DNA of 64,000 bases from contig JAWLHY010000005.1 in assembly GCA_041690135.1 (NCBI GenBank), forward strand, positions 1-64,000, in the 5' to 3' direction. The notes under the pieces are model-generated. The model made no database searches. It worked only from the letters and a program-made list of their open reading frames with translations, and had not been told where the DNA came from. Origin of the DNA: Armatimonadota bacterium (GTDB taxonomy: Bacteria > Armatimonadota > SYMT01). Below are positions 6,624-37,253 of this stretch, piece by piece. Each line of letters opens with the position of its first letter. Within the stretch, counting starts at the first letter, position 1. The translations under genes were made by a program, and so were the position numbers.

Positions 6624-6830
6624 CGATTTCTCCGTTCATCCCTTAGCCGGCGTAGGTTTACGCCCCGAGGGGGGTGCCGGCTTCGCTTTTTGTAGGCGTG
6701 AGTTCACTCGCCTTCCCGAAGCGGTCCAATCTCAGCACTCCCTTAGTATCCCGCAGGGCGGCGGGCGTCACTCCCGGAGTTCATGGGTATAGCCAGCCAG
6801 GAACCATGCAAGGGTTCAGGAGGAGATAAG

Positions 6831-7229: not shown

Positions 7230-7261
7230 CGAGTGGGGCTGACCCCGGTGTATTGGGAACG

Positions 7262-7302
7262 TGCCGAACGGTCCGAGAGAGCCTCTCTCGGACCGTTCGG
7301 CA
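7262..7302 (+). terminator. Strong hairpin downstream of the thioredoxin-like gene
   Basis: TGCCGAACGGTCCGAGAGA-GCC-TCTCTCGGACCGTTCGGCA, 19-bp perfect stem, no clear U-tract. Confidence 0.6.
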
Positions 7303-7405
7303 TCTCAGTTCCCTCTCTCAACTGACAGCCGCCGGCGACGTCGTATAGCATGAACGGGTCCGGAATCCGGCCCGAAGCATTCCCTGGCGTACCGGAGGTC
7401 CCTAC

Positions 7406-8002
7406 TTGAACCGAAATACAATCGTCGCCTTCACGCTGGCAATCGGCCTTTCTGGAGCGGCCGGGTTTTTCGGAGCCTGCGCGTTGGGCGCGGCGGAGAA
7501 GCCGGCCGGCTTCGAGAAAGATTCCCGCGAGTTGACGTTAACCGAGGAAATGGCCCGTCGCGACCTGGCGGTGGCGGTGGGTGAGCTCCGCCGGATCGCG
7601 CAAGAAACTACCCCGGAGAACTTCGAACCCGGTAAGGCTCGGCGAGAGCAGGCTTTTGAGACGGCCCTCAAGCCGCTCCAGGAAGATTCCGGGCTCCTGC
7701 TTCTCCAGGCGCATCTGCTCTCTCTGACGCACGTTGCGGAAGAAGCAGGAGCGCCGGCCGAGCAGCACCTTCAGCAAGCCATCTACGACCGGTTGCAGGT
7801 CCCCGCGGCCGAGGTGGCGAAGCGGAAAGAAGCGACCGGCCTCGGGCACGGCGGCTTGATTCTGGGTTACCTCACGGCGAAAGTGGCGAAGTTGTCGCCA
7901 GAAGAGGTTTTTGCCGAGAAGAAGAGTAAGTCATGGGCAGAATTGCTCCGCGCGCATAATATCTCCGCGTCGGAGCTCTTCGCGGCCGTGCAGAACCCTT
8001 AG
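7406..8002 (+). CDS. Hypothetical exported protein
   Basis: GGAGG RBS before TTG; N-terminal signal peptide; helical body. Confidence 0.65.
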   Translation: MNRNTIVAFTLAIGLSGAAGFFGACALGAAEKPAGFEKDSRELTLTEEMARRDLAVAVGELRRIAQETTPENFEPGKARREQAFETALKPLQEDSGLLLLQAHLLSLTHVAEEAGAPAEQHLQQAIYDRLQVPAAEVAKRKEATGLGHGGLILGYLTAKVAKLSPEEVFAEKKSKSWAELLRAHNISASELFAAVQNP

Positions 8003-8016
8003 GGTGGCCGAGTTTT

Positions 8017-8025
8017 TGGTATAAT
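8017..8025 (+). promoter_or_regulatory. Extended -10 element
   Basis: TGGTATAAT about 90 nt upstream of the HlyC/CorC gene. Confidence 0.5.
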
Positions 8026-8111
8026 CGCGCCGGAAGTCCCGGTGGGAGAGTGTCTCGTTCGGGCAAGGAGAAGAAGAGCCTGCAGTCCGGGAGGGGCTGG
8101 ACGGGCTTCGT

Positions 8112-9428
8112 ATGTCAAACCCTGGATTAGGTCTCATCATCGCCTTTTTCCTGGTGCTGCTCAACGGTTTCTTCGTGGCCGCGGAGTTTGCGCTGGTAAA
8201 AGTGCGATCCACGCGTATCGCCGAGCTCGCCAATGAGGGCAAGGGTTCGGCGCGGATGGCGATGCATGCCATCCACCATCTCGATGCGTACCTTTCGGCG
8301 ACGCAGCTCGGGATCACGCTCGCCAGCATTGGTCTTGGTTGGATCGGTGAACCGGCCTTTGAGGCGCTGCTGGAGCCGGTGTTCCACGCGCTCCACCTAC
8401 CACCGCAGGTGCACGGAGCGATTGCCTTCTTCGTGCCGTTCGCCATCATCTCGGCGCTCCACATCGTTCTAGGGGAGTTGGCGCCGAAGTCGTGGGCGAT
8501 TCAGGAAGCCGAGAAGGTGACGCTGCGGGTGGCGTACCCGCTCCACTGGTTCTACTGGCTATTCCGGCCGGCGATCGTGGTGTTGAACGGGATGGCGGGC
8601 TTCCTGCTCCGGCGGTTCGGTGTCAGCCCGGTCTCCGAACATGAATTGGCGCACTCCGAAGAGGAGTTGCGGATGATCCTCACGGCCTCCGGCGAAAGCG
8701 GCGTATTGAAGGACAGCGAGGTCGATCTCGTCAAGCACGTCTTCGAGTTCGCGGACAAGGTCGCCGGCGAGATCATGGTTCCGCGAGTCGACATGGTCTA
8801 CCTCGACGCGCAGTGGCCCCTGGAGCGGAACCTGGAGGTCGCGCGTTCGCATACTTTCACCCGCTATCCGCTGTGCGAAGGCGGCCCGGACCGGGTGCTG
8901 GGTATGATCCACATCCGCGACCTGGTGTTGCTGCCGGACGCGGGGGGCGATATCCGCGACATCCGCCGGGACATCGTTTTTGTGCCGGAGAGTAAGTCGA
9001 TCGACCAGTTGCTCCGCGAGTTCCAGCTTCGCAAGATGCACATGGCCGTCGTGGTGGATGAGTACGGCGGGACTTCCGGAATCGTGACCCTGGAGGACGT
9101 GCTCGAGCAGATCGTGGGCGAGATTCACGACGAGTTCGAGGAGCCGCTGCCGGAAGTCCAGCGCCTCGATGAGGACCGGCTGCTGGTGGACGGAAAGGTT
9201 CTGATTTCCGACCTGCGCGCCGAGTACGAGATCGAGATTCCACCGAATGGCTCGGAAACGATCGGCGGGTGGATGCTCGACAAGGTGGGCGCGATTCCCG
9301 AACCGGGAGCCACGGTGGATACCGAAAACTACCGGCTCGAGGTGAAGGAAATGGTCGGGCAGCGGGTGCTGAAAGTCCTCATCACCCGTTGTCCCGTGGA
9401 AGAGCCGCTGGAAGCCGTCCATCTGTAA
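8112..9428 (+). CDS. HlyC/CorC (CNNM + CBS) family transporter
   Basis: NGFFVAAEFALV, QLGITLASIGLGWIGEP, GELAPKS, VVDEYGGTSGIVTLEDVLEQIVGEIHDE. Confidence 0.93.
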   Translation: MSNPGLGLIIAFFLVLLNGFFVAAEFALVKVRSTRIAELANEGKGSARMAMHAIHHLDAYLSATQLGITLASIGLGWIGEPAFEALLEPVFHALHLPPQVHGAIAFFVPFAIISALHIVLGELAPKSWAIQEAEKVTLRVAYPLHWFYWLFRPAIVVLNGMAGFLLRRFGVSPVSEHELAHSEEELRMILTASGESGVLKDSEVDLVKHVFEFADKVAGEIMVPRVDMVYLDAQWPLERNLEVARSHTFTRYPLCEGGPDRVLGMIHIRDLVLLPDAGGDIRDIRRDIVFVPESKSIDQLLREFQLRKMHMAVVVDEYGGTSGIVTLEDVLEQIVGEIHDEFEEPLPEVQRLDEDRLLVDGKVLISDLRAEYEIEIPPNGSETIGGWMLDKVGAIPEPGATVDTENYRLEVKEMVGQRVLKVLITRCPVEEPLEAVHL

Positions 9429-9576
9429 CTGCGGGCGGGCGTTTCGCCCGCCCCCGTTCACCGTGTGCTTCGCGGCCGTTCTCGTCCCGCTCCCCTTCCT
9501 TTGATCGATCACTGGCGGGCGAGACGCCCGCGCTCCGAATTCGTTCTATTCGCGCAATTCGCGGATCGCCCGGGTC

Positions 9577-10680
9577 CTACCCGGTCCAGGACGCAACCGC
9601 TTCTTCGAACGCGCCGATCTCTTCGGCGGAGGTGAGCGCGCCGATCTCCAGGGTGTATTCACGGATCTCGCGGGGTTCCAGATAGGCCAGGCGTCCCGCT
9701 TCCCGCTCCTTTACGCGGCCAACGGGAAGGCAGTTTGCGGGCTCCATCCCCACCACGTAGTTCCGCTGCCCCAGCATCTTCCACTCGGTATAGAAGGGCA
9801 GTTCATTCCGGTTGAACCGGACATAGGCCCCAAACCCGAGGCCCCGGTTGACGATCGCCGTTCCCGTGCGGCCGGCGGCGTCCGCTCCCAGTTCATGGAA
9901 GTAGGCCTTTTCGGCGTACTGGTGGACCGGAGCGTCGAACTCGCGGGCCTGTTCCTGACCCTCTGCGGCGTCGGCATCGCGCGGAGTGATTTTTCGTGAG
10001 GGAGAAAGGAGTTGGGAACCGGCATCCACGGCCGGGAAGCCGATGTTGATGTGGTACAGCAACTGATGCTCCACGCGCTCGAACCCGGCGTTTTCCACGC
10101 GGTCCCGGACTACGAAATGGTTGCTGCCAAGGGTGGTGCTGATTTCCCGGTGGAGGATCAGGTTTTCCCCGAAGACCATGCTCTCCTGGCACTTGCCGCG
10201 GAGCCACATGCGGTACTCGTCCCCCTCCCAGGCGGCGTCCGCGTAGACGTTCTTACCCGGCGTGTGCGAGATGCGTCCGTGCAGGCCCAACTCCCGCGGT
10301 CCCAGACGGTCCGTACCCGCGCCCTGCTCGTCCCGGACGGGCGCTCCCGCCCAGTTGAGGCCACACGTCACCATCACCCCGCCGTAGAAGCTGCGGACCC
10401 ATCCCAACCCGGAGGGATCATAGTAGGCGGGGTGCACGTCCTCCGTCATGGAGCGCCAGTTCAGCGGCTTGCCTCCCCACTCGCAGTGGGAAATGTCGAG
10501 CCCGCGGTCGATCAGGGCCGTGAAGGCGAACCCGGTGCCGGTTCGGAACTCCGCGGCGCGTATCCCGCGCTCTTTGCCGTCCGCCAGCTCCACCAGCCGG
10601 ACCCCCGCAATCTGCTGCAAATCGCCGACGCGCTGCTCCAGCTCCCCACGGGTCCAATCCCTCCCCCATAGACGTGGCAT
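9577..10680 (-). CDS. Aldose 1-epimerase-like protein (DUF4432)
   Basis: DRGLDI, TCGL, GLHGRISH, LLYHINIGFP, VGMEPAN. Confidence 0.85.
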   Translation of the reverse strand: MPRLWGRDWTRGELEQRVGDLQQIAGVRLVELADGKERGIRAAEFRTGTGFAFTALIDRGLDISHCEWGGKPLNWRSMTEDVHPAYYDPSGLGWVRSFYGGVMVTCGLNWAGAPVRDEQGAGTDRLGPRELGLHGRISHTPGKNVYADAAWEGDEYRMWLRGKCQESMVFGENLILHREISTTLGSNHFVVRDRVENAGFERVEHQLLYHINIGFPAVDAGSQLLSPSRKITPRDADAAEGQEQAREFDAPVHQYAEKAYFHELGADAAGRTGTAIVNRGLGFGAYVRFNRNELPFYTEWKMLGQRNYVVGMEPANCLPVGRVKEREAGRLAYLEPREIREYTLEIGALTSAEEIGAFEEAVASWTG

Positions 10681-11414: not shown

Positions 11415-12812
11415 TTAGCCCGGATTTCCGATGACCGCCTGCCACGGCAGATCCGGCGCCAGAAGCTTCTCCGGACGGGTCTCGGCGGCCAGCACCCGTT
11501 CCGCGGCCAGGTAGCCGCTGCGGACGGCCGCCTCCATGGTCGAAGGCCACCCGTTCTGCACCCAGTCACCGGCCAGAAACAGGTTCGGGATCGGTGTCTC
11601 CGGCGGTGGGCGCAGCGCGTCCACGCCAGGCGCGGGTGCGAAGGTCGCCAGCGCCTCTTTGATCACCGCCGATTTCACCACCTGCGCACCCTGAGTGCCG
11701 GGAAATGCCTCCCGGACTTCTCGCTCGGCGATCTCCAGGATCTCCCGGCGAGGACGTCGCAACCAGTCGTGACAGGCGCTGACGACCAGGCCCATATACG
11801 TGCCGCCTTCGGACCGGCGGAAATCTTCCGTCTTGTTGAACATCCACTGGACCTGCCGGTCCAGCATGGCGGCATGTCCCAGTTGCGTTACGGGGCGGTC
11901 CCACCAGAAATGTACGGCGCTGATGGGCGATGGCGCCATGCCGCTCCATCGCCGGAAAAACGGATGGTCGGCGGCGGCCGCGGGCAGGATCTCTCGGGCC
12001 GCCCCAAAGGCGACGGCGCTCACCACGTAGTCGGCCGGGATGGGGCCTTCCGCGGTCAGCACGGCACTGGCCCGCTCGCTGACACACTCGATCCGCTCGA
12101 CGCCACTGCGGAAACGGACGTCCACTCCCAGCTTGCGCAGCGCTTCCACGCACGGTGTGTAGAGCTCTCGCAGCGGGACGCGCGGCACCCCCATTTCGTA
12201 GGCGTGGGGATGGGAGAGGAAGCCCTGGCGGAATACCTGGAAAGCATACCGGGTGCTGCAGCGCTCCGGCTCCTCGTTGAGTGCGCTGACGACGATGGGT
12301 TGCCAGAACCGCGCGACCGCCCGCCGTGTCTGCCCGGTACTGGCGAGCCACTGACTGAACGGCTGGTCCTTGCGGGGGCCGGTCGAGAGCAACATCCGCA
12401 TCATGCCGTTGGCGATGGCCCACTTGTCCGCCGCGGAGAGGAAGCTCAGGCGGAAAAACGAGGGCATCACGTGGAACGGGGCGGGCAGCCTGCTGCCGCC
12501 CAGCCGGGAGACCCGTCCGTTCGGCTCCAGGAACTGGATCTGGTCGATCCACCGGATGTTCTCCTGCACGCCGGCCTGGCCGTAGAACTTCCACAGGTTC
12601 GTGCAGCAGCGCATCAGGATGTGCTGGCAGTTGTCGATGGTCTCGCCCGTATCCTGGGCATCGTAAGAGGATGCCCGGCCTCCGGGGATCGACTTGCGCT
12701 CGAGCAGGGTCACGCGGAAGCCGCGTTCCGCCAGGGAATGGGCCGCGGCAAGCCCGGCCAACCCGGCGCCGATAACCACTACGCGCTTGATAGCCGCTCC
12801 TCCCGCACCCAA
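11415..12812 (-). CDS. hpnE: Hydroxysqualene dehydroxylase (FAD-dependent); start uncertain
   Basis: VVVIGAGLAGL, GGRASS, IDNCQHILMRCCTN, LFLAGDW...WPSTMEAAVRSG; overlaps hpnD. Confidence 0.85.
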   Translation of the reverse strand: MGAGGAAIKRVVVIGAGLAGLAAAHSLAERGFRVTLLERKSIPGGRASSYDAQDTGETIDNCQHILMRCCTNLWKFYGQAGVQENIRWIDQIQFLEPNGRVSRLGGSRLPAPFHVMPSFFRLSFLSAADKWAIANGMMRMLLSTGPRKDQPFSQWLASTGQTRRAVARFWQPIVVSALNEEPERCSTRYAFQVFRQGFLSHPHAYEMGVPRVPLRELYTPCVEALRKLGVDVRFRSGVERIECVSERASAVLTAEGPIPADYVVSAVAFGAAREILPAAAADHPFFRRWSGMAPSPISAVHFWWDRPVTQLGHAAMLDRQVQWMFNKTEDFRRSEGGTYMGLVVSACHDWLRRPRREILEIAEREVREAFPGTQGAQVVKSAVIKEALATFAPAPGVDALRPPPETPIPNLFLAGDWVQNGWPSTMEAAVRSGYLAAERVLAAETRPEKLLAPDLPWQAVIGNPG

Positions 12813-13657
12813 CGCGACTGCCACCAGGCCTGCGTGGCAATGAGCATCTTCTGCCACGTGGGCACGCGTGCCCGGCGATGGTAGACGTCGTAGTTCTGTG
12901 CCACGATGGCGTCCAGAATACCCCGGTAAATCAGCCGCATGGCGCGAAGGCAGGGGCGGCTGTCCGGCGAAACCAGTTCCACCAGCGGCGCGGCTCGGTC
13001 GTAGTACTCCTGCGCGCGCTCCACTTCGAACCGCATCAGGGCGCGGAACGCCTCGTTGTCGACCCCGGTCTTCAACTCTTCCTCGGTGTAGCCGAACCGG
13101 GCCAGGTCCTCTGCCGGCAAATAGACCCGCCCCATCTGGGCGTCCTCACGCAGGTCCCGCAGGATATTGGTGAGCTGGAACGCGATGCCGTTGTACTCCG
13201 CCAACTCCATCGCGCGTGGGTCCTCGAACTCGAATATGTGGATGCAGACCAGCCCCACCACGGAGGCTACGTGGTAGCAGTACCGGTACGTCTCCGCGAA
13301 CGTCTCGTAGCGCCGCGGCGTGAGGTCCATCTCGGTGCCGTCGATCAGCTCGTGGAAGTATTTCCGGGGAATGGAGTACCGCTGCACGGCGTCGTGGAAA
13401 GCCGGAAAAATCGGGCTGTCGCCGTAGTCGCCCTCAAAAGCCCGGTCCAGCGCCGCCCGCCACTCCGCCATGCGCGCTTCGCGGTTGCCGGTCCCGTCGT
13501 CGGACACGTCGTCCGAGTGCCGCATGAACGCATAGATCGCGCACATGGCGTCGCGCTTTGGCTTCGGCAGGCAGATGAACGAGTAGTAGAAGTTCCGGGC
13601 CTGGGTGCGCGCGAGCCGGATGCAGTATTCGTAGCTTTCCGGAGCGGAGATCGGCAT
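12779..13657 (-). CDS. hpnD: Squalene/phytoene synthase family, HpnD-like
   Basis: NFYYSF, YAFMRHSDDVSD, YCYHVASVVG, AFQLTNILRDLREDA, GRVYLP. Confidence 0.75.
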   Translation of the reverse strand: MPISAPESYEYCIRLARTQARNFYYSFICLPKPKRDAMCAIYAFMRHSDDVSDDGTGNREARMAEWRAALDRAFEGDYGDSPIFPAFHDAVQRYSIPRKYFHELIDGTEMDLTPRRYETFAETYRYCYHVASVVGLVCIHIFEFEDPRAMELAEYNGIAFQLTNILRDLREDAQMGRVYLPAEDLARFGYTEEELKTGVDNEAFRALMRFEVERAQEYYDRAAPLVELVSPDSRPCLRAMRLIYRGILDAIVAQNYDVYHRRARVPTWQKMLIATQAWWQSRWVREERLSSA

Positions 13658-13836
13658 CGGGGAGACCTGGAACTGTACGGATTCAGGGCCGGACGGTAAA
13701 CGGGGGACGAGGAAGCCACACCGAAGGCGCGGAAGTCACTCCAACTATATCCCGACGCGGGTCTCCGGCGGTCAGAAGTAGGACCGGCTCCTCTCTCCCG
13801 TGAACTGTTGTCAAAGACATTCCACGAGAGGTACAG

Positions 13837-14856
13837 ATGAGCGCCGTCAAGACCATCCACACGTTTTCGGAGATCGACTTCAACCGCTCCGGGAAGGCGC
13901 ACTACGAGATCGCCTTCCACCACGACGGCACCTGGGGCAATGTGCTGGTGCCGCTCACCGTGATCAACGGCTATCGTGGGCGGGGTAAAACAGTCGCCTG
14001 CTTCGGCGGCACCCACGGCAACGAGTACGAAGGCCAGGTGGGCGTGTGGCAGATGGCGCTGGAGCTCGATCCGGAGCAGATCGCCGGGCGAGTGCTGCTG
14101 ATGCCGCGCCTCTGCACCCCTGCGTGCGATGCCGGCACGCGGGAGTCGCCGCTGGACGGCGTGAACATGAACCGGGCCTTTCCAGGCAACCCGCAGGGTA
14201 GTATCACCTACCGGATCGCTCACTTCGTGACGCAGGAGATCTTGCACCGGGCGGACGTTGTGCTGGACATCCACTCCGGTGGCCGCATTCTGCGCTTCCC
14301 GATGGTTTCCTCTTTCCACGAAGTGCCGGACCCCCATCAACAGCGGGAGATGGCAGTGGTAGCCCGTCTCTTCGATACCCCCTTTGTCATGGTCTACGCG
14401 AAGGCCATGGCGCGCGGCTTGCTTACGGATGAAGCCGAGGCGATGGGGAAGATCACAATCGGGACCGAACTGGGTTGGGGAGACGCCACCATCCGGGAAG
14501 GCGTCGCCTACGCCCGGGCAGGCATCCTCAACACGCTGCGGCATTACGGGCTATTGGAAGGAGCCACAGAGCGGGTGCGGCCCGTGGATGCGCCGCCGCC
14601 GCGGATCATCCGCGCGGTCCGGCTGGAAGATTACATCCCCGCGCCGATTTCCGGGATCTACGAACCCACGACGGAGCCGGGGCAATGGGTGGAAGCGGGG
14701 GATCTCATCGGTCGTCTCTACGACTTCGATTATGCGGGGAGAGCTCCCCTGGAGATGCGGGCTCCGCGCTCGGGTTGGCTGCTGGTGGTCCCATTCGCCG
14801 CCGCCGTTCCCAAGGGGCAGACGGTGATCGTGGTAGCGGAAGAAGTTGAATACTAA
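13837..14856 (+). CDS. Succinylglutamate desuccinylase/aspartoacylase family protein
   Basis: GGTHGNEYEG, NMNRAFPG, LDIHSGG, TELG; C-terminal barrel-sandwich segment. Confidence 0.88.
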   Translation: MSAVKTIHTFSEIDFNRSGKAHYEIAFHHDGTWGNVLVPLTVINGYRGRGKTVACFGGTHGNEYEGQVGVWQMALELDPEQIAGRVLLMPRLCTPACDAGTRESPLDGVNMNRAFPGNPQGSITYRIAHFVTQEILHRADVVLDIHSGGRILRFPMVSSFHEVPDPHQQREMAVVARLFDTPFVMVYAKAMARGLLTDEAEAMGKITIGTELGWGDATIREGVAYARAGILNTLRHYGLLEGATERVRPVDAPPPRIIRAVRLEDYIPAPISGIYEPTTEPGQWVEAGDLIGRLYDFDYAGRAPLEMRAPRSGWLLVVPFAAAVPKGQTVIVVAEEVEY

Positions 14857-16995: not shown

Positions 16996-17649
16996 CTAAA
17001 GCTCCCGCACCTCGACCTTGCGGAAGTCCACCAGGCTGTTATGGTTCTGCAGCCCGATCAGCCCCTTGCGCGGCCGCTTGGCAAGCACGACCTTGCCCTT
17101 GCCCAGCGAGTTCCCGAAGTCATCCAGGTTGATGTTCTGGATTTCCACGCCGTTGAGCTTCACCAGCACCTGCGGTCCCTGGCAGCGGATATACATCTCG
17201 TTCCACTCGCCCGCCGGCTTGTGGGCCCGGGCCTTGGGCGCGCTGTGAGTGTAGATTGAACCGTTGCGGTGATCGTCCTTGAGCTTGGCGTAGTTCGGAT
17301 GGTCGTCATCCAGGATCTGGATCTCCATCGCGTCGGTGGAGGGCCAGCCACCGCGCGGGAACCGGAGACCGACCCCGCTGTTGCCGCCCGGCCCGATCTT
17401 GTACTGGAGACGCAGTTCGAAGTCGCCGTACTCCTTATCCGTGGCGAGGTAGCCGCCACCGCCTCCCGTGCAGGAGATCAACTCTCCGTTGGCTTTCCAC
17501 GCTTCGAGCTTGCCGCGCTCCACGTGCCAGCCGTTCAGGTCGGCTCCGTTGTAGAGGGTCACCCAGCCGGCGGCCTGCGCGGCATTGCCCGCCAGGCCCA
17601 CCGTCACCAGGCCCGCCACTCCCCCGACGATCAATTCGCGACGATTCAT
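16996..17649 (-). CDS. DUF1080 (3-keto-disaccharide hydrolase family) protein, Tat signal
   Basis: MNRRELI; LYNGADLNGW, YGDFELRLQY, GGNSGVG, EIQILDD, GEWN, GLIGLQNH. Confidence 0.9.
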   Translation of the reverse strand: MNRRELIVGGVAGLVTVGLAGNAAQAAGWVTLYNGADLNGWHVERGKLEAWKANGELISCTGGGGGYLATDKEYGDFELRLQYKIGPGGNSGVGLRFPRGGWPSTDAMEIQILDDDHPNYAKLKDDHRNGSIYTHSAPKARAHKPAGEWNEMYIRCQGPQVLVKLNGVEIQNINLDDFGNSLGKGKVVLAKRPRKGLIGLQNHNSLVDFRKVEVREL

Positions 17650-17666: not shown

Positions 17667-18320
17667 CTAGTTCAGTTCACGGATCTCGATGTTGCGGAAA
17701 TCCACCGGGTCGCCGTGGCTCTGCACCCCGACATGGCCCTTGCGCGGCCGTTCCACGAGCGCTTTGTGCCCGCCCTGGCCCACGGTGAACTCTTCCACGT
17801 TGACGTCCTGGATGACGACGCCGTTCAACTTGACCCGGATCTTTGGCCCTTCGCAGCGCACCACGTAACGGTTCCATTCGCCCGGCTTCTTCGCGGCCTT
17901 CGCCTTGGGCGCGGCCTGGTAATAGAGGCCGCCGGTGTACTGGGCATCCTTCAGCTTGCCCTTGTACTGTGGGGCATCATCGTCCAGCATCTGGATTTCG
18001 ATGCCCGCGTGCGCAGGGTCGCCCGTCCCCGGGTAGCGGATGCCGAGGCCGCTGTTCCCGCCCGGCGGGACGCGCCACTCGATGCGCATCTCGAAGTCGC
18101 CGTACTCCTTATCGGAGGTGAGCCAGCCCCCGCCCGGCGCCACGCAGGAGATCATCTCCCCGTTGGCCTTCCAGCACTCCATCTTGCCGTTCTGCACATG
18201 CCAGCCGGTCAGGTCTTTGCCGTTGTACAGCTTCTCCCATTTGCCTTTGCCGAACGCCGAAGGGCTCAGCGTGAGAACCGCCAGGGTGGCGGCGCCGGTG
18301 ATCAAAAACCGTCGATTCAT
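17667..18320 (-). CDS. DUF1080 protein, tandem paralog
   Basis: Start trimmed to MNRRFLI; LYNGKDLTGW, GGNSGLG, EIQMLDD, GHVGVQSHG. Confidence 0.9.
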   Translation of the reverse strand: MNRRFLITGAATLAVLTLSPSAFGKGKWEKLYNGKDLTGWHVQNGKMECWKANGEMISCVAPGGGWLTSDKEYGDFEMRIEWRVPPGGNSGLGIRYPGTGDPAHAGIEIQMLDDDAPQYKGKLKDAQYTGGLYYQAAPKAKAAKKPGEWNRYVVRCEGPKIRVKLNGVVIQDVNVEEFTVGQGGHKALVERPRKGHVGVQSHGDPVDFRNIEIRELN

Positions 18321-18504
18321 GAGGTCACTCCGAGGATCAAAGAGAATAGCAGCTTTAACTTTCGCCATCTCGAGGCCACTTCCCTGTCGCCTGCGGCGGT
18401 GCGCAGAAATGCAACAACGCCGGTAGCTTCGCGAATTAGGACGAGGATTACGATGAGGATAAAGAGGGCCTGCTGCGGAAACCTGAAGACGAAAGGAGCC
18501 CCCT

Positions 18505-20455: not shown

Positions 20456-21445
20456 CTACCCCTCTCCGTGGCCTTCTCCGTGTCTCAGTGCCTCTGTGGT
20501 GAAATCCCCGCGGCAGCGAAGTCCGGCGGCCCAGGCGGCGATTTCCGCGGCCGGCGCCATGCCGGTGACCGCCCCCACGGCCGTCACCGCTCGGGCACCG
20601 CAGGCGTTGGCGAAGTGCAGGCTGCGTTCCAGCTCCCAGCCTTGCGAGCGGCCGTAGAGGAACCCGGCGATGAAGCAATCGCCCGCGCCGGTGGTTTCCC
20701 GGACCGGCACCTCGTAGGCCGGGAGGAAGATCTCCCGCTCGGCATCCTGATAGAGACAGCCCCGGTCTCCCAGCTTAATCACCACGGCGCGAGAGCCCGC
20801 TTCGCGCAGGACCCGGGCCATAGCCGCGGGCTCCGCCTGGCCGGAGAGATGGCTCGCCTCCTCTTCGCTGGGCATGAAGAAGTCGACGTGGGGTAGGCAG
20901 GGACCGAGGTTCTCCAGCCAGCGTCCTTCGCGGTCCCAGCAGACGTCTACTGAGGTCGTCATCCCCCGCCGGTGCGCTTCGGAAAGGACTTCGGCAGCCG
21001 TCGCGCCGTCCAGGGCGGGAAGCACGAAGAAGCTGGCCAGGTGGAGATGCCGCGCCCCCGCGATCCGGTCCCACGGAATGTCCGCCGGTCCGAACCGGGC
21101 GTTGGCCCCGTAGTGATGGATGAAGCTGCGCTCGCCGGTGGAGTCGATGGGGACGAGGGTCACGCCGGTAGTGGCCTCCGGATCGCGGACCACCGGTCCT
21201 GTATCAACCCCCCACCCTTCCAGGGTCTCCAGCATGAAGCGGCCGTAGAGATCGTTCCCGACCCGTCCCCCGACCGCCACACTCGCCCCCAGCTTTCCCA
21301 GGGCCCCCGCGGTGTTCGGTCCGTTGCCGCCCACGTGGGTCTCCAGCGTGTCGATCAGGAGTAGCCGCCCCCGCTCCGGCAACCGGTCTATCGGCTTGCC
21401 GATCAAATCCACCACGAAGTTGCCGAGTACGAAGATATCAGACAT
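20456..21445 (-). CDS. PfkB family carbohydrate kinase
   Basis: GGNGPNTA...GRVGNDLYG, GERSF, ETTGAGDCFIAGF. Confidence 0.92.
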   Translation of the reverse strand: MSDIFVLGNFVVDLIGKPIDRLPERGRLLLIDTLETHVGGNGPNTAGALGKLGASVAVGGRVGNDLYGRFMLETLEGWGVDTGPVVRDPEATTGVTLVPIDSTGERSFIHHYGANARFGPADIPWDRIAGARHLHLASFFVLPALDGATAAEVLSEAHRRGMTTSVDVCWDREGRWLENLGPCLPHVDFFMPSEEEASHLSGQAEPAAMARVLREAGSRAVVIKLGDRGCLYQDAEREIFLPAYEVPVRETTGAGDCFIAGFLYGRSQGWELERSLHFANACGARAVTAVGAVTGMAPAAEIAAWAAGLRCRGDFTTEALRHGEGHGEG

Positions 21446-21572
21446 TTGCCATTATAGGATAAGTCGTGTTGCAGCCTCCGCAGTTCGTCTGTCCGCGAGG
21501 CCTGGGTGCGTTTGCAGTTTTTCGATTTGTGTGCCTAGAACTCTCCCATCCTAGTATCTCGTACATCATTCG

Positions 21573-22179
21573 TTCTAATACCCGACCTGCCGTATGGAAG
21601 TCCCCCCAGCCCTAGCCTTGGGACCCCACCCTCCCGCGTGCCGGGCCTCCGCTCGGCCTTTCACGCTCGTCCCTCGCTAGCGGCCGGCTGCGGCGTGCAC
21701 TCCATTCGCTCTGCCCGCGCTGCGGCCGGGCGCAGTTCCTTCCGCCTAGCGTACACGGGTGGGGTTCCGGCGTCTTCGAGCTATCCCCCCTCTGGGGGAT
21801 CACAAATGCCGGCTGTACCGGCACAAGGTCAGGACGAACCGGCCCATTGGGGCGGATGGTAGGTCACGGACCTGTCAGATCCATGTTGGTTGGAGATGAT
21901 GGCCTATCTCCAAAGGGGGCCTGTCGGACGCCCTCACTTGTGACCTCCCCGGAGGGGGGAGGTCGCTCGAAGAGGTGCCGAAGTTCCCGTCCACCGCCCT
22001 TCTGGGCCATGCCGTCGGCAGTGGCGCGGGAAGTCAACCGTGGTGTTCACGCCGCAGCCGGCCGTTAGCCGGGGTCCCCTTTGGGGTGGCGTGAAAGGCC
22101 GAGCGGAGGCCCGGCACGCGGGAGGGAGCTTCGGCGGCTAGGGCGCGGGGGGGACCAATTGGTAGTCGAGATGGTAGAA
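21573..22179 (+). ncRNA. Candidate large structured RNA (or palindromic non-autonomous element), family not recognised
   Basis: Nested helices: 21609-21617/22136-22144, perfect 38-bp 21629-21666/22089-22126, 21676-21697/22047-22069, 21714-21723/22021-22030, TCTTCGAGC/GCTCGAAGA; multibranched tip; G-U pairs on the + strand; no credible ORF. Confidence 0.6.
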
Positions 22180-22251
22180 GAAGGGTCTCCGTCTCGGCTC
22201 TCACGTTCCCCGTCGCACGGTTCATACAGTAGTCCGAGCTAACTCTCCTGG

Positions 22252-22516
22252 CCCCGCACATGGGCTTACGCATCACGCACTACGCATCACGCGCACCTGT
22301 CCGAGGCAGCCCTCTGCCCCTGCAACCACCTTCGCAGGTAGCCGCACGCATTACGCATCACGTCTCACCTGAACACGAGGCACCCATTTCGCCTCCGCAA
22401 CCACCTTCGCACGTAGCCTCACGCATTACGCATTACGCATCACGCGCACTCACGTTCGAGGCACCTGCCCTGCCCGCTGCAGCCACCCCGCACGCATGCT
22501 TACGCATCACGCATTG
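22252..22516. repeat. Degenerate ~75-80 bp tandem array (about 3.5 units) with nested ACGCATY heptamers
   Basis: Recurrent ACGCATTACGCATCACG...CGAGGCA...GCAACCACCTTCGCA blocks. Confidence 0.8.
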
Positions 22517-22581
22517 CGGAGCCCCTGAACGAGCGCCCACCCAGGGCTCTCCATCAGAGGGTGTGAACGAGAGCCCCAGAG

Positions 22582-23346
22582 CTACACCGGATTGGGAATG
22601 TCGATAAACTCGTGCTCGACCCCGAACACCGTGGACAGGTGCTCGCCTACGGCTCGGATGCCGATCCGCTCGGTGTTATAATGCCCCGCGCCGAGGAAGT
22701 GGATGGCTCCCTCTCGCGCCGTTTGCATCACGAATTCGGATGCTTCGCCGGTGATGAAGAGGTCCAGGCCCTCTTCAATCGCCTGGCGAACCTCCCCCTG
22801 CGCCCCGCCGCTGATGATTCCCACGGAGTGGATTGGGTCTGGACCGTAGAGGAACGAGAGCGCGTTCGTTTCATAGAGGGAGTTCACGCGCTGCACGGCT
22901 TCTTGGGGAGAGAGACCGGCCCACTCGCCTCGAAAGCCGATCGGCTTGCCGTTGTATTCGGCCCAAGGACGAATGTTCTCCAGTCCGAGGCCCTGCGCGG
23001 CGAGGAAGTTATTACCCACCTCGGGATGCGCGTCCAGGCAGAGGTGATAGGCCGCCAGCGTGAGCTCGTTTTCCAACAGCAGCTCGAGGCGCCGCTTGAG
23101 CCCTCCCCTGACCACCCGCGACTCCCGGTCCCAGAAGATCCCGTGGTGCACGATCACCATGTCGGCGCTCGCTTCCACCGCGGCCTCGAACAGGGCCACG
23201 CTGCCGGAGACCCCGCTCACCACCTTGCGGACTTCCGCCTTCCCTTCGACCTGGAGGCCCTGCGGACCGTAGTCCCGGAAATCTCCCACCCGGAGGTAAT
23301 CGTGGAGGTAAGTCAGGATCTCATTGCGGGAAGCCAATTCAGCCAT
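22582..23346 (-). CDS. Nif3-like dinuclear metal centre protein (DUF34)
   Basis: DYGPQGLQVEG, IVHHGIFW, YHLCLDAHPEVGNN, FITGE, AGHYNTE. Confidence 0.93.
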   Translation of the reverse strand: MAELASRNEILTYLHDYLRVGDFRDYGPQGLQVEGKAEVRKVVSGVSGSVALFEAAVEASADMVIVHHGIFWDRESRVVRGGLKRRLELLLENELTLAAYHLCLDAHPEVGNNFLAAQGLGLENIRPWAEYNGKPIGFRGEWAGLSPQEAVQRVNSLYETNALSFLYGPDPIHSVGIISGGAQGEVRQAIEEGLDLFITGEASEFVMQTAREGAIHFLGAGHYNTERIGIRAVGEHLSTVFGVEHEFIDIPNPV

Positions 23347-28208: not shown

Positions 28209-30710
28209 ATGAAACCGCTCTTCCAACACTGGGTCCTGCTCGGCTCTTTACCGGCTCTTTTAACGGCCGGCGGCGTGCTGGCGCGCGAGGCACATACTTT
28301 CACCCCCAGCCAGCGCGGCCACTGGGCCTGGAAGAAGCCGGTCACCCCGCCGCTCCCACGCGTGCGGCGCCAGGCATGGGTGCTCAACCCGATCGACGCC
28401 TTCGTCCTCTTCCGGTTGGAAGAGCGTGGCCTCCAGCCGGCCCCGGCCGCATCCCGCGAGGTGCTGATTCGTCGGGTGGCCCTGGACCTGACCGGTCTTC
28501 CCCCGACCGTGGCCGAGATCGATGCCTTCCTTGCCGATGCGGCTCCGGGCGCCTACGAGCGGATGGTGGACCGCTATCTCGCCTCCCCGCATTATGGGGA
28601 GCGCTGGGCGCGCCACTGGCTCGACCTTGCCCGTTATGCCGACACCAACGGTTACGAGCACGACGAGATCCGGCCCGATGCCTGGCGTTATCGGGACTAC
28701 GTCGTACGCTCGTTCAACGAGGACAAGCCGTACAACCGGTTCGTGCAGGAGCAGATCGCCGGCGATGAGCTCGACCCCGAAAACCCGGATTGTCTCATCG
28801 CGACCGGTTTCAATCTCCTCGGGCCGGATATGACGGACGCCGCGGACCAGGCTGCCCGCCGCCAGAATACGCTGAATGACATGACGGACACCGCGGGCCT
28901 GGTCTTCCTGGGCCTCACGATGGGTTGCGCTCGCTGCCACGACCACAAGTACGAGCCCCTGCTGCTGAAGGATTACTATCAACTTCAGGCGTTCTTTACC
29001 CCGGCCCGTTTCCGCATCGATCTTCCGGCGGGGACTCCGGAGGAAGAGAAAGCTTACCGCCGGCGGTTAGCGGAACATGAGCGCAAGGTCGAAGAGGTGC
29101 GCGGCCGGATGGAAGCAGTGGCAGGGCCGGTGCTGCGGGAGTTGCGGAAGAAAGCGCTCGCCGGCCTGCTCGAGGACGTCCGCACCGCCTTTGCCACACC
29201 GGAAACGGCACGCACTCCCGCCCAACAGAAGCTGGTCGAGAACCACTCCCGGCGGATCGAACCCCCGGCGAAGGAGGTGCTTTCCCGTCTTGCGGGAGAG
29301 CGCCAGGACCGCTTTGAAAAGCTGGCGGCCGAGCTGAAGACCCTCAACGACCGGAAGCCGGCGCCCCCGCGAGCGATGGGCCTCTGGGAAGACGGCAAAG
29401 TAACCCCCACCTATGTCCTGGAACGGGGCGAGCTTGAGAATCGCGGTCCCGAAGTCCGGCCCGGCTATCCCGTCATCCTGGCGTCCCAGGGAGTACCCCC
29501 CGCCGCGGCGGAAGCTGTTCCAATGCAGAGCAGTGGACGCCGCCTGGCCCTGGCGCGCTGGATCACGCACCCCGATAACCCGCTCGCGGCCCGAGTCATC
29601 GTCAACCGCGCCTGGCAGCATCACTTCGGCCGTGGCCTCGTCCCCACCCCCAGCGACTTCGGCCTCCGCGGCGAAAACCCCACGCACCCGGAGTTGCTGG
29701 ATTTCCTGGCCTCCGTGTTTTCCAGCACGGGTACGGTTACCGAAATGCAGGGGGACAAGGGTGCAGGGAGCAAGGGGGAAAGGAGACCAGTTGCCCCGCA
29801 CGGCTACGGCCTGACCGAAGGCAAGGGCGCAAAGGCGCAGGGCGCAGGGGAGAAGAGAACCCCGGTAACCGCAGCAGCCTCTGCTCTCCGGGGTTCCCCT
29901 TACGCAATACGCAATACGCAATACGCATCCAATGTCGCCCCCACTGCCCCCCAGCCCCGGACCCCCGGCCCCGCCGAAGGCTTGGGTTGGTCGATCAAAA
30001 AGCTCCACCGCCTCATTCTCACGTCGAATGCCTACAAACAGTCGAGTCGCCCTTCAGCGAGGACTCTGGCGACGGATCCCGAGAACGAGGTCTTCTCGCG
30101 GATGAATCGGGTGCGCCTCGAAGCCGAGGCGATCCGGGACGCGACCCTGCTGGTGAGCGGTCGCCTGAACCCGAGGATGGGCGGGCCGGGCGTGTTCCCG
30201 CCGGTGCCGCGGGATCCTTCCACCAAGGGCGCGGAGTGGCCGGTATCGCGAAACCCGGCCGATCACACCCGCCGCAGCCTCTACGTCTTCGTCCGGCGCA
30301 ATCTCCCCTTCCCTGCGTTCGAGGTGCTGGACACGCCCGACACGAACCAAAGCTGTCCGGTCCGCGAGACCAGTACCACGGCACCCCAGGCGCTGTCGTT
30401 GCTGAACGATTCCGAAATGCTGCTCACCGCCCAGCACTTCGCCGGCCGGTTGCTAAGGGAAGCTCCGGATACGGCCTCCCGGATCACCCTGGCCTACCGC
30501 CTGGCACTCGCACGGCGCCCCACCGCCCGCGAGTTGACCACCGGGGAAGAGTTCCTGAAAGCGCAGGCGGAACTGATCGGCGAGCGCCCCCGGCAGGAGC
30601 TCGCGCTTCCTGTTCCGTGTCCGGAAGATCTCCCCAGCGCGCAGGGCGCCGCCCTGACCGACTACTGTCTCGCGCTTTTGAATCTGAACGAGTTCGTTTA
30701 CGTGGACTAG
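28209..30710 (+). CDS. DUF1549/DUF1553 (PSD1) domain protein
   Basis: NPIDAFV, LIRRVALDLTGLPP, YGERWARHWLDLARYADT, CARCHDHKYEP, NPLAARVIVNRAWQHHFGRG, PQALSLLN. Confidence 0.93.
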   Translation: MKPLFQHWVLLGSLPALLTAGGVLAREAHTFTPSQRGHWAWKKPVTPPLPRVRRQAWVLNPIDAFVLFRLEERGLQPAPAASREVLIRRVALDLTGLPPTVAEIDAFLADAAPGAYERMVDRYLASPHYGERWARHWLDLARYADTNGYEHDEIRPDAWRYRDYVVRSFNEDKPYNRFVQEQIAGDELDPENPDCLIATGFNLLGPDMTDAADQAARRQNTLNDMTDTAGLVFLGLTMGCARCHDHKYEPLLLKDYYQLQAFFTPARFRIDLPAGTPEEEKAYRRRLAEHERKVEEVRGRMEAVAGPVLRELRKKALAGLLEDVRTAFATPETARTPAQQKLVENHSRRIEPPAKEVLSRLAGERQDRFEKLAAELKTLNDRKPAPPRAMGLWEDGKVTPTYVLERGELENRGPEVRPGYPVILASQGVPPAAAEAVPMQSSGRRLALARWITHPDNPLAARVIVNRAWQHHFGRGLVPTPSDFGLRGENPTHPELLDFLASVFSSTGTVTEMQGDKGAGSKGERRPVAPHGYGLTEGKGAKAQGAGEKRTPVTAAASALRGSPYAIRNTQYASNVAPTAPQPRTPGPAEGLGWSIKKLHRLILTSNAYKQSSRPSARTLATDPENEVFSRMNRVRLEAEAIRDATLLVSGRLNPRMGGPGVFPPVPRDPSTKGAEWPVSRNPADHTRRSLYVFVRRNLPFPAFEVLDTPDTNQSCPVRETSTTAPQALSLLNDSEMLLTAQHFAGRLLREAPDTASRITLAYRLALARRPTARELTTGEEFLKAQAELIGERPRQELALPVPCPEDLPSAQGAALTDYCLALLNLNEFVYVD

Positions 30711-34369: not shown

Positions 34370-35785
34370 TTATAGCAGCCCTTCGATCGGCTTGCCCATA
34401 TTAACGTACATTGGACGGTCCTGGATGTCGCGGACCTCGTACTCGTGCCGGATGCCGAGTGATTCATAGATGGTGGCGGTCACTTCGCTCGGCATATAGC
34501 CTTTCGTCACCGGGTGTCCGGCCCATTCGTCCGTCTCACCGAGGACTGTGCCGCCGCGCACGCCCGCGCCGGCGAACACGCCGCTCCACACCCACTGCCA
34601 GTGGTTGCGGCCGTCGGGGTCGGCGGCATTGGCGGCCGCTCCCGCCACCGATCGACCGAGGATCGGGTTGCGGCCCATCTCACTGGTACAGAACACGAGC
34701 GTCTCATCCAGCATTCCGGAATCGTGCATATCCTGCAGGAAGGCGCTGAACGCCTGATCGAACGGCGGCATGTGAGCGTCCATCAGCTTGTCTTCGCGCC
34801 GGTGGTAGTCCCAGTGGTTCAGGTTGCCGATGTTGACCTGGATGTACTTGACCCCGGACTGCGCGAGGCGCCGTGCGAGCAAAAGGGACTGCCCCCAGGT
34901 GGTGCGGCCGTACCGGTCGCGCAGGTTGACCGGCTCCTTCTCCAGGTCGAACGCCTTCCGTACCCCGGCCGAAGTGGCAACCTCGAAGGCTTTCTTCTGG
35001 TTCTCCGAAAGCTGCTGCACGCCCAGATCGCGGTCCAGATCGCTGCGGAGATCATCCACCTGCGCCAGCAGCCGCTGCCGGTTGCTCAGCCGGTCTACTG
35101 TCATGCCGGGTACGGGCAGCAGGTCGGGAATCCGGAAATTCGGCTTGTTGGGGTCCCCCTCGATGATCCACGGATCGTACCGGCTCCCCATCCAGCCAGC
35201 ATCCTCTCCGGGAACGGGCGCGCCCTGGAACCGGATGCGGTACGGCAGGTGGATGGCGGAAGGCAAACCCGTCTGGCTGGGATACCTGTGGGTGATCACC
35301 GAGCCCATCGATGGATAGTCGTTCCGGGTGGCGAAGCTTTTAAAGGTCGATGGGCGGCGGTCGACACCGGCGAGGATTTCCTGGTGACCCGGAATGTGAT
35401 TCTCATCCTCGGCGTTCAGGGTGAGGGTGCGCACGATGCAGCACCGGTGCATCTGTTTCGCCGTAAGCGGGAGTCGGCTGCCGATCTCCACCCCCGGTGC
35501 GCTGGTCTTGATCGGCGTGGCGGTCCCGCGGCACTCGCGCGGCGAATTCGGCTTGAGATCCCACAACTGCATCTGGGGTGGCCCGCCGGGCATCCAGACG
35601 ATGATCACGCTCTTGGCGCGAGCCTTTGAGCCGTCTGCGCGCGCCTCTCGCGGTTGGAAGGCCCCGTCCATCGTCAGCCCAAAGGAGCCGAGAAAACCTA
35701 CCTGGAGCAGTTCGCGCCGCAGGATGCCGGAGCGGTGAATATGCGGAATGACCTGACCGTTTTCGTTCATCTGATTCCCATGCAC
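34370..35785 (-). CDS. DUF1501 family protein
   Basis: RRELLQVG, VWMPGGPPQMQLWDLKP, RDRYG...GQSLLLARRL, WDYH, SEMGRNP. Confidence 0.9.
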   Translation of the reverse strand: MHGNQMNENGQVIPHIHRSGILRRELLQVGFLGSFGLTMDGAFQPREARADGSKARAKSVIIVWMPGGPPQMQLWDLKPNSPRECRGTATPIKTSAPGVEIGSRLPLTAKQMHRCCIVRTLTLNAEDENHIPGHQEILAGVDRRPSTFKSFATRNDYPSMGSVITHRYPSQTGLPSAIHLPYRIRFQGAPVPGEDAGWMGSRYDPWIIEGDPNKPNFRIPDLLPVPGMTVDRLSNRQRLLAQVDDLRSDLDRDLGVQQLSENQKKAFEVATSAGVRKAFDLEKEPVNLRDRYGRTTWGQSLLLARRLAQSGVKYIQVNIGNLNHWDYHRREDKLMDAHMPPFDQAFSAFLQDMHDSGMLDETLVFCTSEMGRNPILGRSVAGAAANAADPDGRNHWQWVWSGVFAGAGVRGGTVLGETDEWAGHPVTKGYMPSEVTATIYESLGIRHEYEVRDIQDRPMYVNMGKPIEGLL

Positions 35786-36140: not shown

Positions 36141-36908
36141 ATGGCTCGTTGGATAAAAGGCTGTGCGCTGGGCTGCGTGACGCTGGTATTGTTGATCGTG
36201 TTTGCCGGAGTGGCAGCGGTGAAGTGGGCCGGTGCGCCTCCGCCGACGGCGCCAAAGATCGGCTCGGTGGTGGCGCTGCGTCCCCTCTTCCTGCGCAAGC
36301 AGGGGGAGCCCTTCAGCGCCGGGACCGCCGTTGCCGTGCGGGTACAGCCCCAATCGGCGCCGATCCTCCTAACGGCGCTCCATCTCTTCGGCCCGTCCGG
36401 CGGGCTGGAGAAAGACCTGGCTCCCGCGGAGCTGGACCAGCAGATCCGGGAGGTGTGGCTCGCCCCCATTAGCGGTAAACGCAGAGTCGTCGCACGCGCC
36501 CGCGGCGCCCTTCGCAAGAGCGGTCCCGCCCTCTCCGAAAACCTGCCGGGGGTCTCCGAAGATGTGGCGGCGTTCAAGCTCCAGCCGAAGAGCGCGGTCA
36601 ACGCCCTCCCCCTCGCCGCCGCGAACCCGAAGTTTGGCGACTGGGTATGGCTGGTCGGTGACGTGTTCGACCACGAGCCGCAGACGCAGCGCCTCTTCGC
36701 CGGACGCGTGTGGCGCTCCCACGATGAGGGTACGATGATCCGCCTCCAGGAGCGCTTCCCCCTCCGCGCCTTCTCCGGCGCCCCCGTCATCAACGAGCGG
36801 AAAGAGGTGGTCGGCCTCCTCATCAGCGGCGGCGAAGGCGGCGGCATCGGCATCATCAACCCCGCCGGCAACATCCGCCGGAAGTTAGCAGTGGGCGGAG
36901 TGGATTAG
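36141..36908 (+). CDS. Membrane-anchored trypsin-like serine protease
   Basis: LLTALH, EDVAAF, FSGAPVIN...VVGL catalytic triad pattern. Confidence 0.75.
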   Translation: MARWIKGCALGCVTLVLLIVFAGVAAVKWAGAPPPTAPKIGSVVALRPLFLRKQGEPFSAGTAVAVRVQPQSAPILLTALHLFGPSGGLEKDLAPAELDQQIREVWLAPISGKRRVVARARGALRKSGPALSENLPGVSEDVAAFKLQPKSAVNALPLAAANPKFGDWVWLVGDVFDHEPQTQRLFAGRVWRSHDEGTMIRLQERFPLRAFSGAPVINERKEVVGLLISGGEGGGIGIINPAGNIRRKLAVGGVD

Positions 36909-37253
36909 GACCAGGATAAGGATAAAGAGGCCCGCTCCAGGACGGGTGCCCTGACCAGGGGCGGGATGGATTAGGACCTGGAATAGGATCAGGATCCGGT
37001 TAAGGACGACTTCCCTGACCAGGGCGATGGCCACGCCTGCCCGGCGGAGCTAGGGTCATTCATGGTTTCTGGCGCAGACGGTTGGGCGCTTCGACGGGAG
37101 ACTCATCAAAGTGGGTGAAGTTGCTGCTGATCTATCGCTCCTCGCCATGACAAGCGTCTACATTGACTGATAATGAGCGTGGCCATTGCCTGAAAGCCTG
37201 CATGCCTGAAAGCCTGCATGCCCGAACGCCGAACGCCGAACGCCGAACGCCCG

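Follow-up and report, generated by a model that had tools for sequence, protein, structure and literature searches.

The window analysed here is a stretch of 64,000 nucleotides (nt) of Armatimonadota DNA. Between a pfkB-family kinase gene and a NIF3 gene it contains a 607-nt non-coding stretch (21573-22179) made of two inverted copies of a self-folding module of about 260 nt. Modules of the same family are dispersed in the window's genome and in some of its relatives, and evolution keeps the fold of each module, not the pairing of the two modules with each other. We lean towards the view that the family is a lineage-restricted, non-coding, non-autonomous dispersed DNA repeat, similar to repetitive extragenic palindromic (REP) doublets forming hairpins (REPINs) or to miniature inverted-repeat transposable elements (MITEs), and that its modules propagate only when folded as single strands.

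Fold and covariation of the module

The initial annotation described the pfkB-NIF3 spacer as carrying an unannotated RNA-like rod of about 610 nt, and much of that description stands. The stretch is non-coding and highly structured, has no Rfam match and contains covariation. All 15 motif pairs through which it was said to pair from end to end are present within 21573-22179 at matching places (for example TTCTA at 21573 with TAGAA at 22175, GCCCTAGCC at 21609 with GGCTAGGGC at 22136, and TCTTCGAGC at 21773 with GCTCGAAGA at 21965). The perfect 38-bp helix is there as a perfect 38-nt inverted repeat (21629-21666 and 22089-22126), together with a second arm pair of 34 nt that is 85% complementary. 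When folded, the + strand of 21560-22190 reaches -400.0 kcal/mol, against -300.3 (standard deviation 6.7) for 20 dinucleotide shuffles, none of which was as stable (z -14.9). The initial annotation could not match the stretch to RNase P, tmRNA, SRP, 6S or group I/II intron motifs, and 0 of the 4227 models of Rfam 15 match the 64-kb window at their gathering scores. At E up to 10, the region 21400-22700 gives chance-level matches only (sX15, 17.5 bits against 55; Ocean-VII, 11.3 against 53.5) and no self-cleaving ribozyme family. Five loci of relatives, searched at E up to 1, gave three chance-level matches, all of them outside modules. None of the six small open reading frames (ORFs) across the spacer contains a Pfam family.

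The rod itself, however, is not supported as a functional unit, being two inverted copies of the ~260-nt module whose mutual pairing is not conserved. Because the modules lie tail to tail, the stretch folds end to end. Folded at full length it reaches -393.6 kcal/mol, a gain of about 90 kcal/mol over its halves taken apart (-145.2 and -159.1), so that any transcript across both modules would form the rod. The rod is a by-product of the module arrangement, a thermodynamic consequence and not a conserved feature. The hairpins that had been placed at a junction prove to belong to the 3' tails, two to a module, with a conserved CACAA between them. We consider it very improbable that the stretch encodes one rod-shaped RNA of ~610 nt, either a new large class of non-coding RNA (ncRNA) or a chromosome-encoded viroid-like replicon. 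The energy gain and the lack of an Rfam match would suit such an RNA, but inter-module pairing is not conserved, both strands fold alike, single modules and tandem arrays are common, the DNA copies are dispersed and diverged, and no ribozyme or other Rfam family stands out at E up to 10. The suggestion of a viroid-like or RNA-copied element is equally unsupported, with no ribozyme match and no reverse transcriptase (RVT_1) in the related genome G005, which is rich in modules.

The search for other copies proposed with the initial annotation (BLAST, nhmmer) found related sequence at about ten further loci of the genome. Alignment of these loci, in the window's own 9.1-Mb assembly, defines the repeat unit as a self-folding module of ~260-290 nt. 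With an nhmmer profile, 16 full modules and 2 fragments are counted in this genome, the 16 being arranged as 4 convergent inverted pairs (Table 1) and 8 singles. In the module fold, the long-range helix P1 (13-15 bp) closes a multi-helix core. Helix P2 has 8 bp and a conserved TTTCAC/GCTAGC internal loop, and between its strands, at one fixed place, stands a hairpin, P2a, whose length goes from 0 to ~45 nt. The first tail hairpin shows compensatory changes among copies.

Covariation is strong within each module, while the pairing between modules that forms the rod is not conserved. In 29 cores from two genera, 23 pairs (15 of P1 and 8 of P2) are formed in 92.8% of cells; shuffling lowers this to 71.2%, and none of 500 shuffles attains the observed value. 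Double changes occur in 16 of the 23 pairs, and sliding the partner by 1-3 columns brings pairing down to 30-51%. A covariance model (CM), R1, built from this alignment, collected 105 cores from loci of the window's genome (G000) and of G004, G005 and G006, the other genomes of the order being numbered G001-G007. In the 105 cores, as fitted to the model, 94.2% of cells are paired against 72.4% after shuffling, double changes occur in 18 of 23 pairs, and the slid controls give 28-50%. RNAalifold's own prediction on this alignment has 21 pairs, 19 of them with compensatory changes. At least six different P1 sequences are found within one genome, each with its own complement.

The arms of a doublet are, in turn, far from identical. 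Core identity between the arms of 21 doublets averages 64% (range 0.58-0.78). On average, 13.7 of 15 P1 positions are pairable within a module, against 18.6 of 30 between modules. Arms so different, with an inter-module P1 so poorly pairable, argue that the fold of the module is conserved and that of the rod is not. Among clusters of close copies, deviating cells amount to 42 of 1485 paired cells (2.8%) versus 271 of 3607 unpaired ones (7.5%), and the 23 changed pairs comprise 5 compensatory, 3 wobble and 15 broken. Such conservation of stems would be expected if selection acted to keep the copies mobile, but equally if it acted on a function.

Distribution, arrangement and genomic setting

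Among eight genomes of the order, CM R1 found 16 copies in the window's genome, at least 136 in G005, 8 in G006 and 2 in G004 (the figure for G005 is a lower bound, as 150 candidates were scored in its census), and none in G001, G002, G003 and G007. When 151 genomes sampled from the phylum were searched with R1, 4 matched, all in the window's family, and 147 were without modules. A strict sequence pattern run on 185,579 species genomes returned 58 stretches, 57 of them in one Armatimonadota assembly; the 58th, in another metagenome-assembled genome, was rejected by the CM as a chance match. The same pattern gave 8 stretches in metagenome contigs, all 8 confirmed by the CM, and no match in phage and plasmid collections.

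Adjacent cores less than 1 kb apart (n=26) are convergent in 21 cases and tandem in 5, with 0 divergent, and most convergent pairs have a core gap of 190-240 nt. The convergent doublet is thus the commonest compound form, and copy numbers differ widely among sister genera. Head-to-tail arrays also occur. One metagenome contig (locus L174 1-706) has 2.6 copies of a 268-nt period at 94%, and the arrays of G006 (loci L053 273-1752 and L065 1437-2507) have 3 full and 2 partial units at a spacing of 190-570 nt. At the end of the G006 module tails a GC hairpin is found, with a T-rich tract behind it. In another metagenome stretch modules stand on both sides of mutL. Truncated module fragments were seen near full copies in the window's genome (C7 ~358260-358310; C6:150265-150385; C11:179183-179268 and ~178060-178100).

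The pfkB-NIF3 spacer of the window measures 1139 nt, including the 607-nt doublet. The gene order DHDPS-pfkB-NIF3 is kept in G005, G006 and G001, where the pfkB-NIF3 spacers are ~155, ~62 and ~0 nt, so that the comparison with orthologous sites proposed earlier did find relatives with a short spacer lacking the element. From these short spacers it follows that the doublet and the adjoining 75-nt tandem repeat were either gained in this lineage or lost in three. By sequence comparison, the element of the window looks like an insertion between NIF3 and pfkB; its flanks have diverged so far from the empty sites that they could not be aligned with them.

Sharper boundaries are seen in G005, where the doublet lies in an A-B unit of ~810 nt with sharp ends common to 8 aligned copies. 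In these copies the two ends are unlike each other, in direct as well as in inverted orientation. A BLAST census of G005 counts 12 full-length units, including the query, at 77-100% identity, plus left-half and right-half copies that have a common break. Judging by eye from three flanks (L032, L034, L036), some right-half copies retain sequence resembling the far left terminus. In this genome each module type is also preceded by about 110-130 nt of conserved sequence.

A structural gene cluster resembling that of a prophage or of a gene transfer agent was observed in G005 (L092, C40:12000-31999), with terminase, SPP1-type portal, capsid, head completion and tail completion genes. Six modules fill intergenic gaps of this cluster, all on the gene strand, and a seventh lies further along the contig. 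The portal gene has no orthologue in six other family genomes, and no empty site could be located through it.

On contig C3 of the window's genome, two CRISPR arrays have modules at their cas-distal ends, four in all, with degenerate type I-E repeats on either side of them. At this locus (L022, G000:C3:824000-843000; modules within 6555-7711 and 12217-12955) they stand on one strand, each like a 'spacer' of ~325 nt. The two arrays (7687-10490 and 12985-14847 within L022) bracket cas1-cas2 and have common flanks, and may therefore represent one old event later duplicated. Read on the minus strand, the repeats match the consensus of type I-E and thus have the orientation of the cas genes. The idea that these modules are CRISPR leaders was dropped, since the repeat orientation places them at trailer (cas-distal) ends and only 4 of the 16 modules are CRISPR-linked. 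In spite of the four C3 modules, a CRISPR leader or trailer module that was scattered around the genome is the most improbable explanation that we consider: a genome-wide scan for the repeat motif finds arrays only on C3, a third array there (C3:848469-850135) contains no module, the common flanks of the other two may mean a single event, and no CRISPR repeats accompany the G006 tandem modules or the metagenome copies checked.

Table 1. Parts of the window copy, its neighbours and the convergent pairs of the window's genome (positions in the window unless a contig is named).
Feature	Position	Strand	Evidence and remarks
Whole convergent doublet (the rod of the initial annotation)	21573-22179	.	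L module, short centre, inverted R module; folds, motif places, inverted repeats
L module, C-rich sense on +	~21587-21818	+	nhmmer E 6e-53; CM R1 122.8 bits; CM core 21601-21771
L helix P1, 5' strand	21617-21631	+	pairs with 21757-21771; alignment columns, covariation
L helix P1, 3' strand	21757-21771	+	alignment columns, covariation
L helix P2	21655-21685	+	21655-21666 with 21676-21685; short loop, where other copies have the variable-length P2a hairpin
L 3' tail	21783-21823	+	hairpin ATCCCCCC..GGGGGAT 21783-21800; conserved CACAA 21801-21805; hairpin TGCCGG..CCGGCA 21807-21823
Centre between tails	21858-21913	.	copy-specific hairpins GGTAGGTC/GACCTGTC 21858-21876 and TTGGAGAT/ATCTCCAA 21890-21913, not conserved in other doublets
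R module	~22179-21913	-	nhmmer E 9e-52; CM R1 114.7 bits; CM core 22152->21974
R helix P1, 5' strand	22124-22136	-	includes 'cUUCGg' as read on +
R helix P1, 3' strand	21974-21988	-	pairs with 22124-22136
R helix P2	22060-22100	-	22100->22089 with 22069->22060; encloses the CCCC-AAA-GGGG side hairpin P2a
R 3' tail	21915-21964	-	hairpin GGGGGC..GCCCTC 21915-21935; CACAA (TTGTG on +) 21938-21942; hairpin GACCTCCCC..GGGGAGGTC 21942-21964
pfkB-family kinase gene	20459-21445	-	Pfam PF00294, E 1.4e-59; downstream neighbour
NIF3/DUF34 gene	22585-23346	-	Pfam PF01784, E 1.1e-55; upstream neighbour
75-nt tandem repeat, 2.3 copies	22274-22438	.	many ACGCATT-type heptamers; remainder of the enlarged spacer; outside the module family
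Convergent pairs of the genome	window; C7:358386-359005; C2:1214645-1215261; C2:1221822-1222541		

Short heptamer runs were noticed between genes of the window at 22274-22438 (also 22255-22530), 347-383, 5726-5943, 18424-18459, 29889-29930, 36893-37006 and 52393-52429. They are of the ACGCATT/ACGCATC type at 22274-22438, and of GGATTAG/GGATAAG and ACGCAAT types elsewhere. In G005 the orthologous pfkB-NIF3 spacer (locus L164 2440-2593) has CAGGTTN runs in a palindromic layout around a small hairpin, and TCTGTG-type runs are frequent in the flanks of the G005 elements. These short tandem repeats look like a separate class, widespread in these genomes. The window also contains diverged direct repeats (34497-35200 and 37381-38084; 17000-17565 and 17674-18239), 71-82% identical and spaced by 2884 and 674 nt, the second pair being adjacent paralogues of a 3-keto-disaccharide hydrolase.

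Proposed propagation of the modules and competing explanations

We hypothesize that a module would be copied via a single-stranded intermediate and that the module fold would be what the mobilising enzyme recognises. Mobilisation could then be akin to that of REPINs by REP-associated tyrosine transposases (RAYTs), or to that of the ends of IS200/IS605 insertion sequences (IS) by a Y1 (HUH) transposase. Genes for Y1 transposases are present in all four carriers (matches above the cut-off: 9 in G000, 5 in G005, 6 in G006 and 1 in G004), and each carrier has full-length ones. The bias of orientation with GC skew that single-strand transposition should leave amounts to a trend: 32 of 48 single modules are oriented in accordance with the skew around them, as are 4 of 4 loci of the window's genome (windows of 5-50 kb). 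Where the absolute skew exceeds 0.03 the proportion is 15 of 17, which becomes 9 versus 3 (p 0.15) once the C40 cluster is counted once. Among A/B doublets orientation agrees with skew in 4 of 15, at skews too near zero to be informative.

Several observations weigh against this reading. Y1 genes also occur in G002 (4) and G001 (1), both without modules. No module lies within 1.5 kb on either side of a Y1_Tnp gene at any of 10 loci, and when the G005 unit was compared with the Y1 loci by BLAST, the best match (E 0.006, 27 nt) was away from the gene flanks. Y1 genes are flanked by their own inverted repeats, unrelated to the modules. TnpB (PF07282) is found in 0 of 4 carrier genomes, although control genomes match in 8 of 14. 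Counted per locus, with the seven modules of G005:C40 taken as one, the skew trend falls to 24 versus 14 (p 0.14). The flanks of 8 G005 copies, read by eye, have a recurring TCTGT-like motif on both sides and no clean duplication. The 105-core alignment, being fitted to model R1, favours the structure of that model. No transposon end known to us is as elaborate as this 260-nt fold with its several helices and its hairpins of variable length, and folds of such elaboration are typical of functional RNAs. The stem conservation in close copies could mean a host-level function of many copies.

Two candidate partners were discarded on such data: TnpB with its omega-RNA, PF07282 being absent from the four carriers, and a RAYT link, there being no module near Y1 genes and no relation between their flanks and the modules. 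In the loci scanned with Pfam no transposase recurs beside modules, and among the G005 matches listed there is no autonomous relative with an ORF between convergent modules 1-6 kb apart. As a separate observation, some Y1 genes are found in RAYT-like arrangements, with their own 47-56-nt inverted REP-like hairpins (L095 1424-1995, L102 1341-2057, L094 1150-2500), and locus L094 contains several copies of a further repeat.

The initial annotation had itself named a MITE- or REPIN-type DNA element, with dispersed copies, target-site duplications and no covariation, as the alternative to an RNA. The dispersed copies and the empty orthologous sites of relatives agree with it, except that covariation is present. 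It is quite unlikely that the family is a MITE of the classical cut-and-paste kind, whose terminal inverted repeats (TIRs) would be very long and diverged, whose DDE transposase would act in trans and whose helices would in fact be repeated protein-binding sites. Inverted doublets, intergenic dispersal and internally deleted derivatives would be expected of it, and a gene for an IS630-type DDE transposase lies 2.3 kb from the C7 doublet. However, the G005 unit has no inverted repeats at its outer ends, the arms of the window copy are inverted yet are whole modules, single modules and head-to-tail arrays are common, and no transposase recurs beside the modules in the loci scanned. Moreover, a single transposase binding site cannot explain why one genome has six or more P1 sequences, all matched by complements of their own. 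The nested helices and the variable-length hairpin fit folding better.

We regard as highly improbable a retroelement similar to short interspersed nuclear elements, in which the module RNA would be reverse-transcribed and then inserted. A structured module in many copies with 3' hairpins is what such an element might look like, but RVT_1 has 0 matches in G004 and in G005, which is 98% complete and has at least 136 copies, while it is present in the module-free G001 and G002. Neither A-rich tails nor other marks of retro-insertion appear in the ends inspected.

The initial annotation took G-U pairs on the + strand and a cUUCGg loop as pointing to selection on an RNA, and these details do not hold. 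The - strand of the window copy folds nearly as well as the + strand (-387.4 kcal/mol, z -14.6), and the G-U excess of the + strand (23 versus 15) is absent in the three other doublets of the genome (18 versus 18, 13 versus 20, 19 versus 21). The better-folding strand also differs among the four doublets. The cUUCGg loop at 22129-22134 turned out to be the antisense of the P1 5' strand of the minus-strand module (22136->22124), with no tetraloop hairpin of its own, and the weak -10 proposed upstream finds no support, a consensus scan of 21300-22700 returning neither promoter-like nor terminator-like sites (0 of each). One U.G pair on the C-rich strand is conserved in 95 of the 105 cores. In a count of wobble against mismatch cells there are 45 G.U versus 25 A.C, but 25 of the G.U cells are one conserved U.G, leaving 20 versus 25; a hand count from the RNAalifold table gives 29 versus 49. 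These counts assign no strand, and variable pairs show no sign that G.U is tolerated and A.C avoided.

A serious, though clearly less probable, rival is that the modules are multi-copy genes for transcribed structured small RNAs. A module would then be an RNA of ~260 nt and a doublet two convergent genes, the fold would be of use to the host or to the element (it might, for instance, be the scaffold of a protein partner), and spread in the genome would be secondary. The covarying multi-helix fold with its variable-length hairpin speaks for such RNAs, as do stems steadier than loops among close copies, the GC-rich terminal hairpin followed by a T-rich tract in some copies (C3 of the window's genome; G006), the U.G pair kept on the C-rich strand and the conserved ~110-130 nt upstream of each module type in G005. 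On the other side stand the lack of strand asymmetry in variable pairs (20 G.U versus 25 A.C) and of promoter-like and terminator-like sites in the window copy. Orientation relative to flanking genes shows no preference either (13/8/8/6 over the four arrangements, for the 35 classifiable of 54 singles; 26 of 48 singles are co-oriented with the coding majority). Within one family, some genera have no copies and another has at least 136, and the orthologous site is empty in relatives.

It is tempting to imagine, although we hold it to be improbable, that the module is a single-stranded nucleic-acid machine of a new kind, either a transcribed ncRNA family or the fold by which a mobilisation system not yet described recognises its substrate. 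In the first form there would be up to more than 130 genes per genome, in convergent pairs and head-to-tail arrays; in the second, a large multi-helix substrate would be needed instead of a short hairpin. The distal P1, variable between copies of one genome yet paired, may act as a specificity or identity element.

If the modules are, as we favour, repeats that propagate through a folded single strand, the hairpin-forming non-autonomous repeats of bacteria would come to include units of ten times the size, in which a multi-helix fold is conserved, and this in a poorly studied phylum, the Armatimonadota. The family would then also be a case, instructive for RNA-discovery pipelines, where the source of strong thermodynamic and covariation signals is a repeat family and not one RNA gene. 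Were the modules expressed RNAs, they would make a new abundant ncRNA class, and interest would be high in that case or if they are the substrate of a new mobilisation system. At the locus itself, NIF3 and pfkB are now kept apart by a 607-nt insert prone to form a perfect hairpin and by a tandem repeat. As these genes abut or lie within ~155 nt of each other in three relatives, the insert probably uncouples their transcription.

Comparison with known systems

A literature search at the level of listings and abstracts found no description of such an element. With the large ncRNAs of Rfam (OLE, ROOL, GOLLD, HEARO/IscB omega-RNA, RNase P, tmRNA and 6S) the modules have in common the size class, a GC-rich multi-helix fold and covariation, and HEARO, too, exists in many copies per genome. 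They differ from these RNAs in matching no Rfam family and in having no IscB or TnpB partner, PF07282 being absent from all four carriers.

ERIC, BOX and Correia elements are named examples of modular intergenic repeats. They resemble the modules as small, non-coding, dispersed repeats that sit between genes. In contrast, our family has no TIRs at its true ends, no defined target duplication and no related autonomous IS that we could find, and shows covariation inside the module, in nested helices. Bacterial MITEs and modular intergenic repeats are presented, in what we consulted of PMC3184786, as small dispersed non-coding elements that give long stem-loops when transcribed.

IS200/IS605 elements move by a single-strand 'peel and paste' mechanism coupled to the lagging strand, according to the portion of PMC5027513 consulted. 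Likeness to them lies in ends without terminal inverted repeats but with subterminal hairpins, in a short recurring junction motif (seen by eye in the G005 units), in one folded strand as the recognised form, which for the modules is a proposal, and in a weak orientation trend with GC skew. The differences are that neither tnpA nor tnpB is found within a module copy or next to one and that the orientation bias is not significant (p 0.14). The end hairpins of IS200/IS605 elements are ~20-30 nt long, and the folded part of the modules is far larger.

REPINs are described in the consulted parts of PMC3337134 and PMC3116915 as REP doublets forming hairpins, linked to RAYT transposases, and the REP palindrome measures ~20-35 nt in the section consulted of PMC3733652. 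Our units differ from REPs in being about ten times longer (~260 nt) and in having several helices. The arms of a doublet are different subtypes, ~64% alike, and at none of the 10 Y1 loci do modules flank the transposase gene, the REP-like flanks of the Y1 genes being unrelated to them. Nevertheless, the defining arrangement of a REPIN, two inverted units with a short spacer and able to form a hairpin, is found in the 21 of 26 adjacent pairs that are convergent. As with REPINs in the material consulted, the modules are non-coding intergenic repeats whose inverted two-unit form folds into a hairpin, singlets occur, and compensatory change keeps the structure. Like REPINs, they are restricted to a lineage, seemingly inherited vertically, and present in tens to hundreds of copies, and Y1-type transposase genes are found in all four genomes that carry them.

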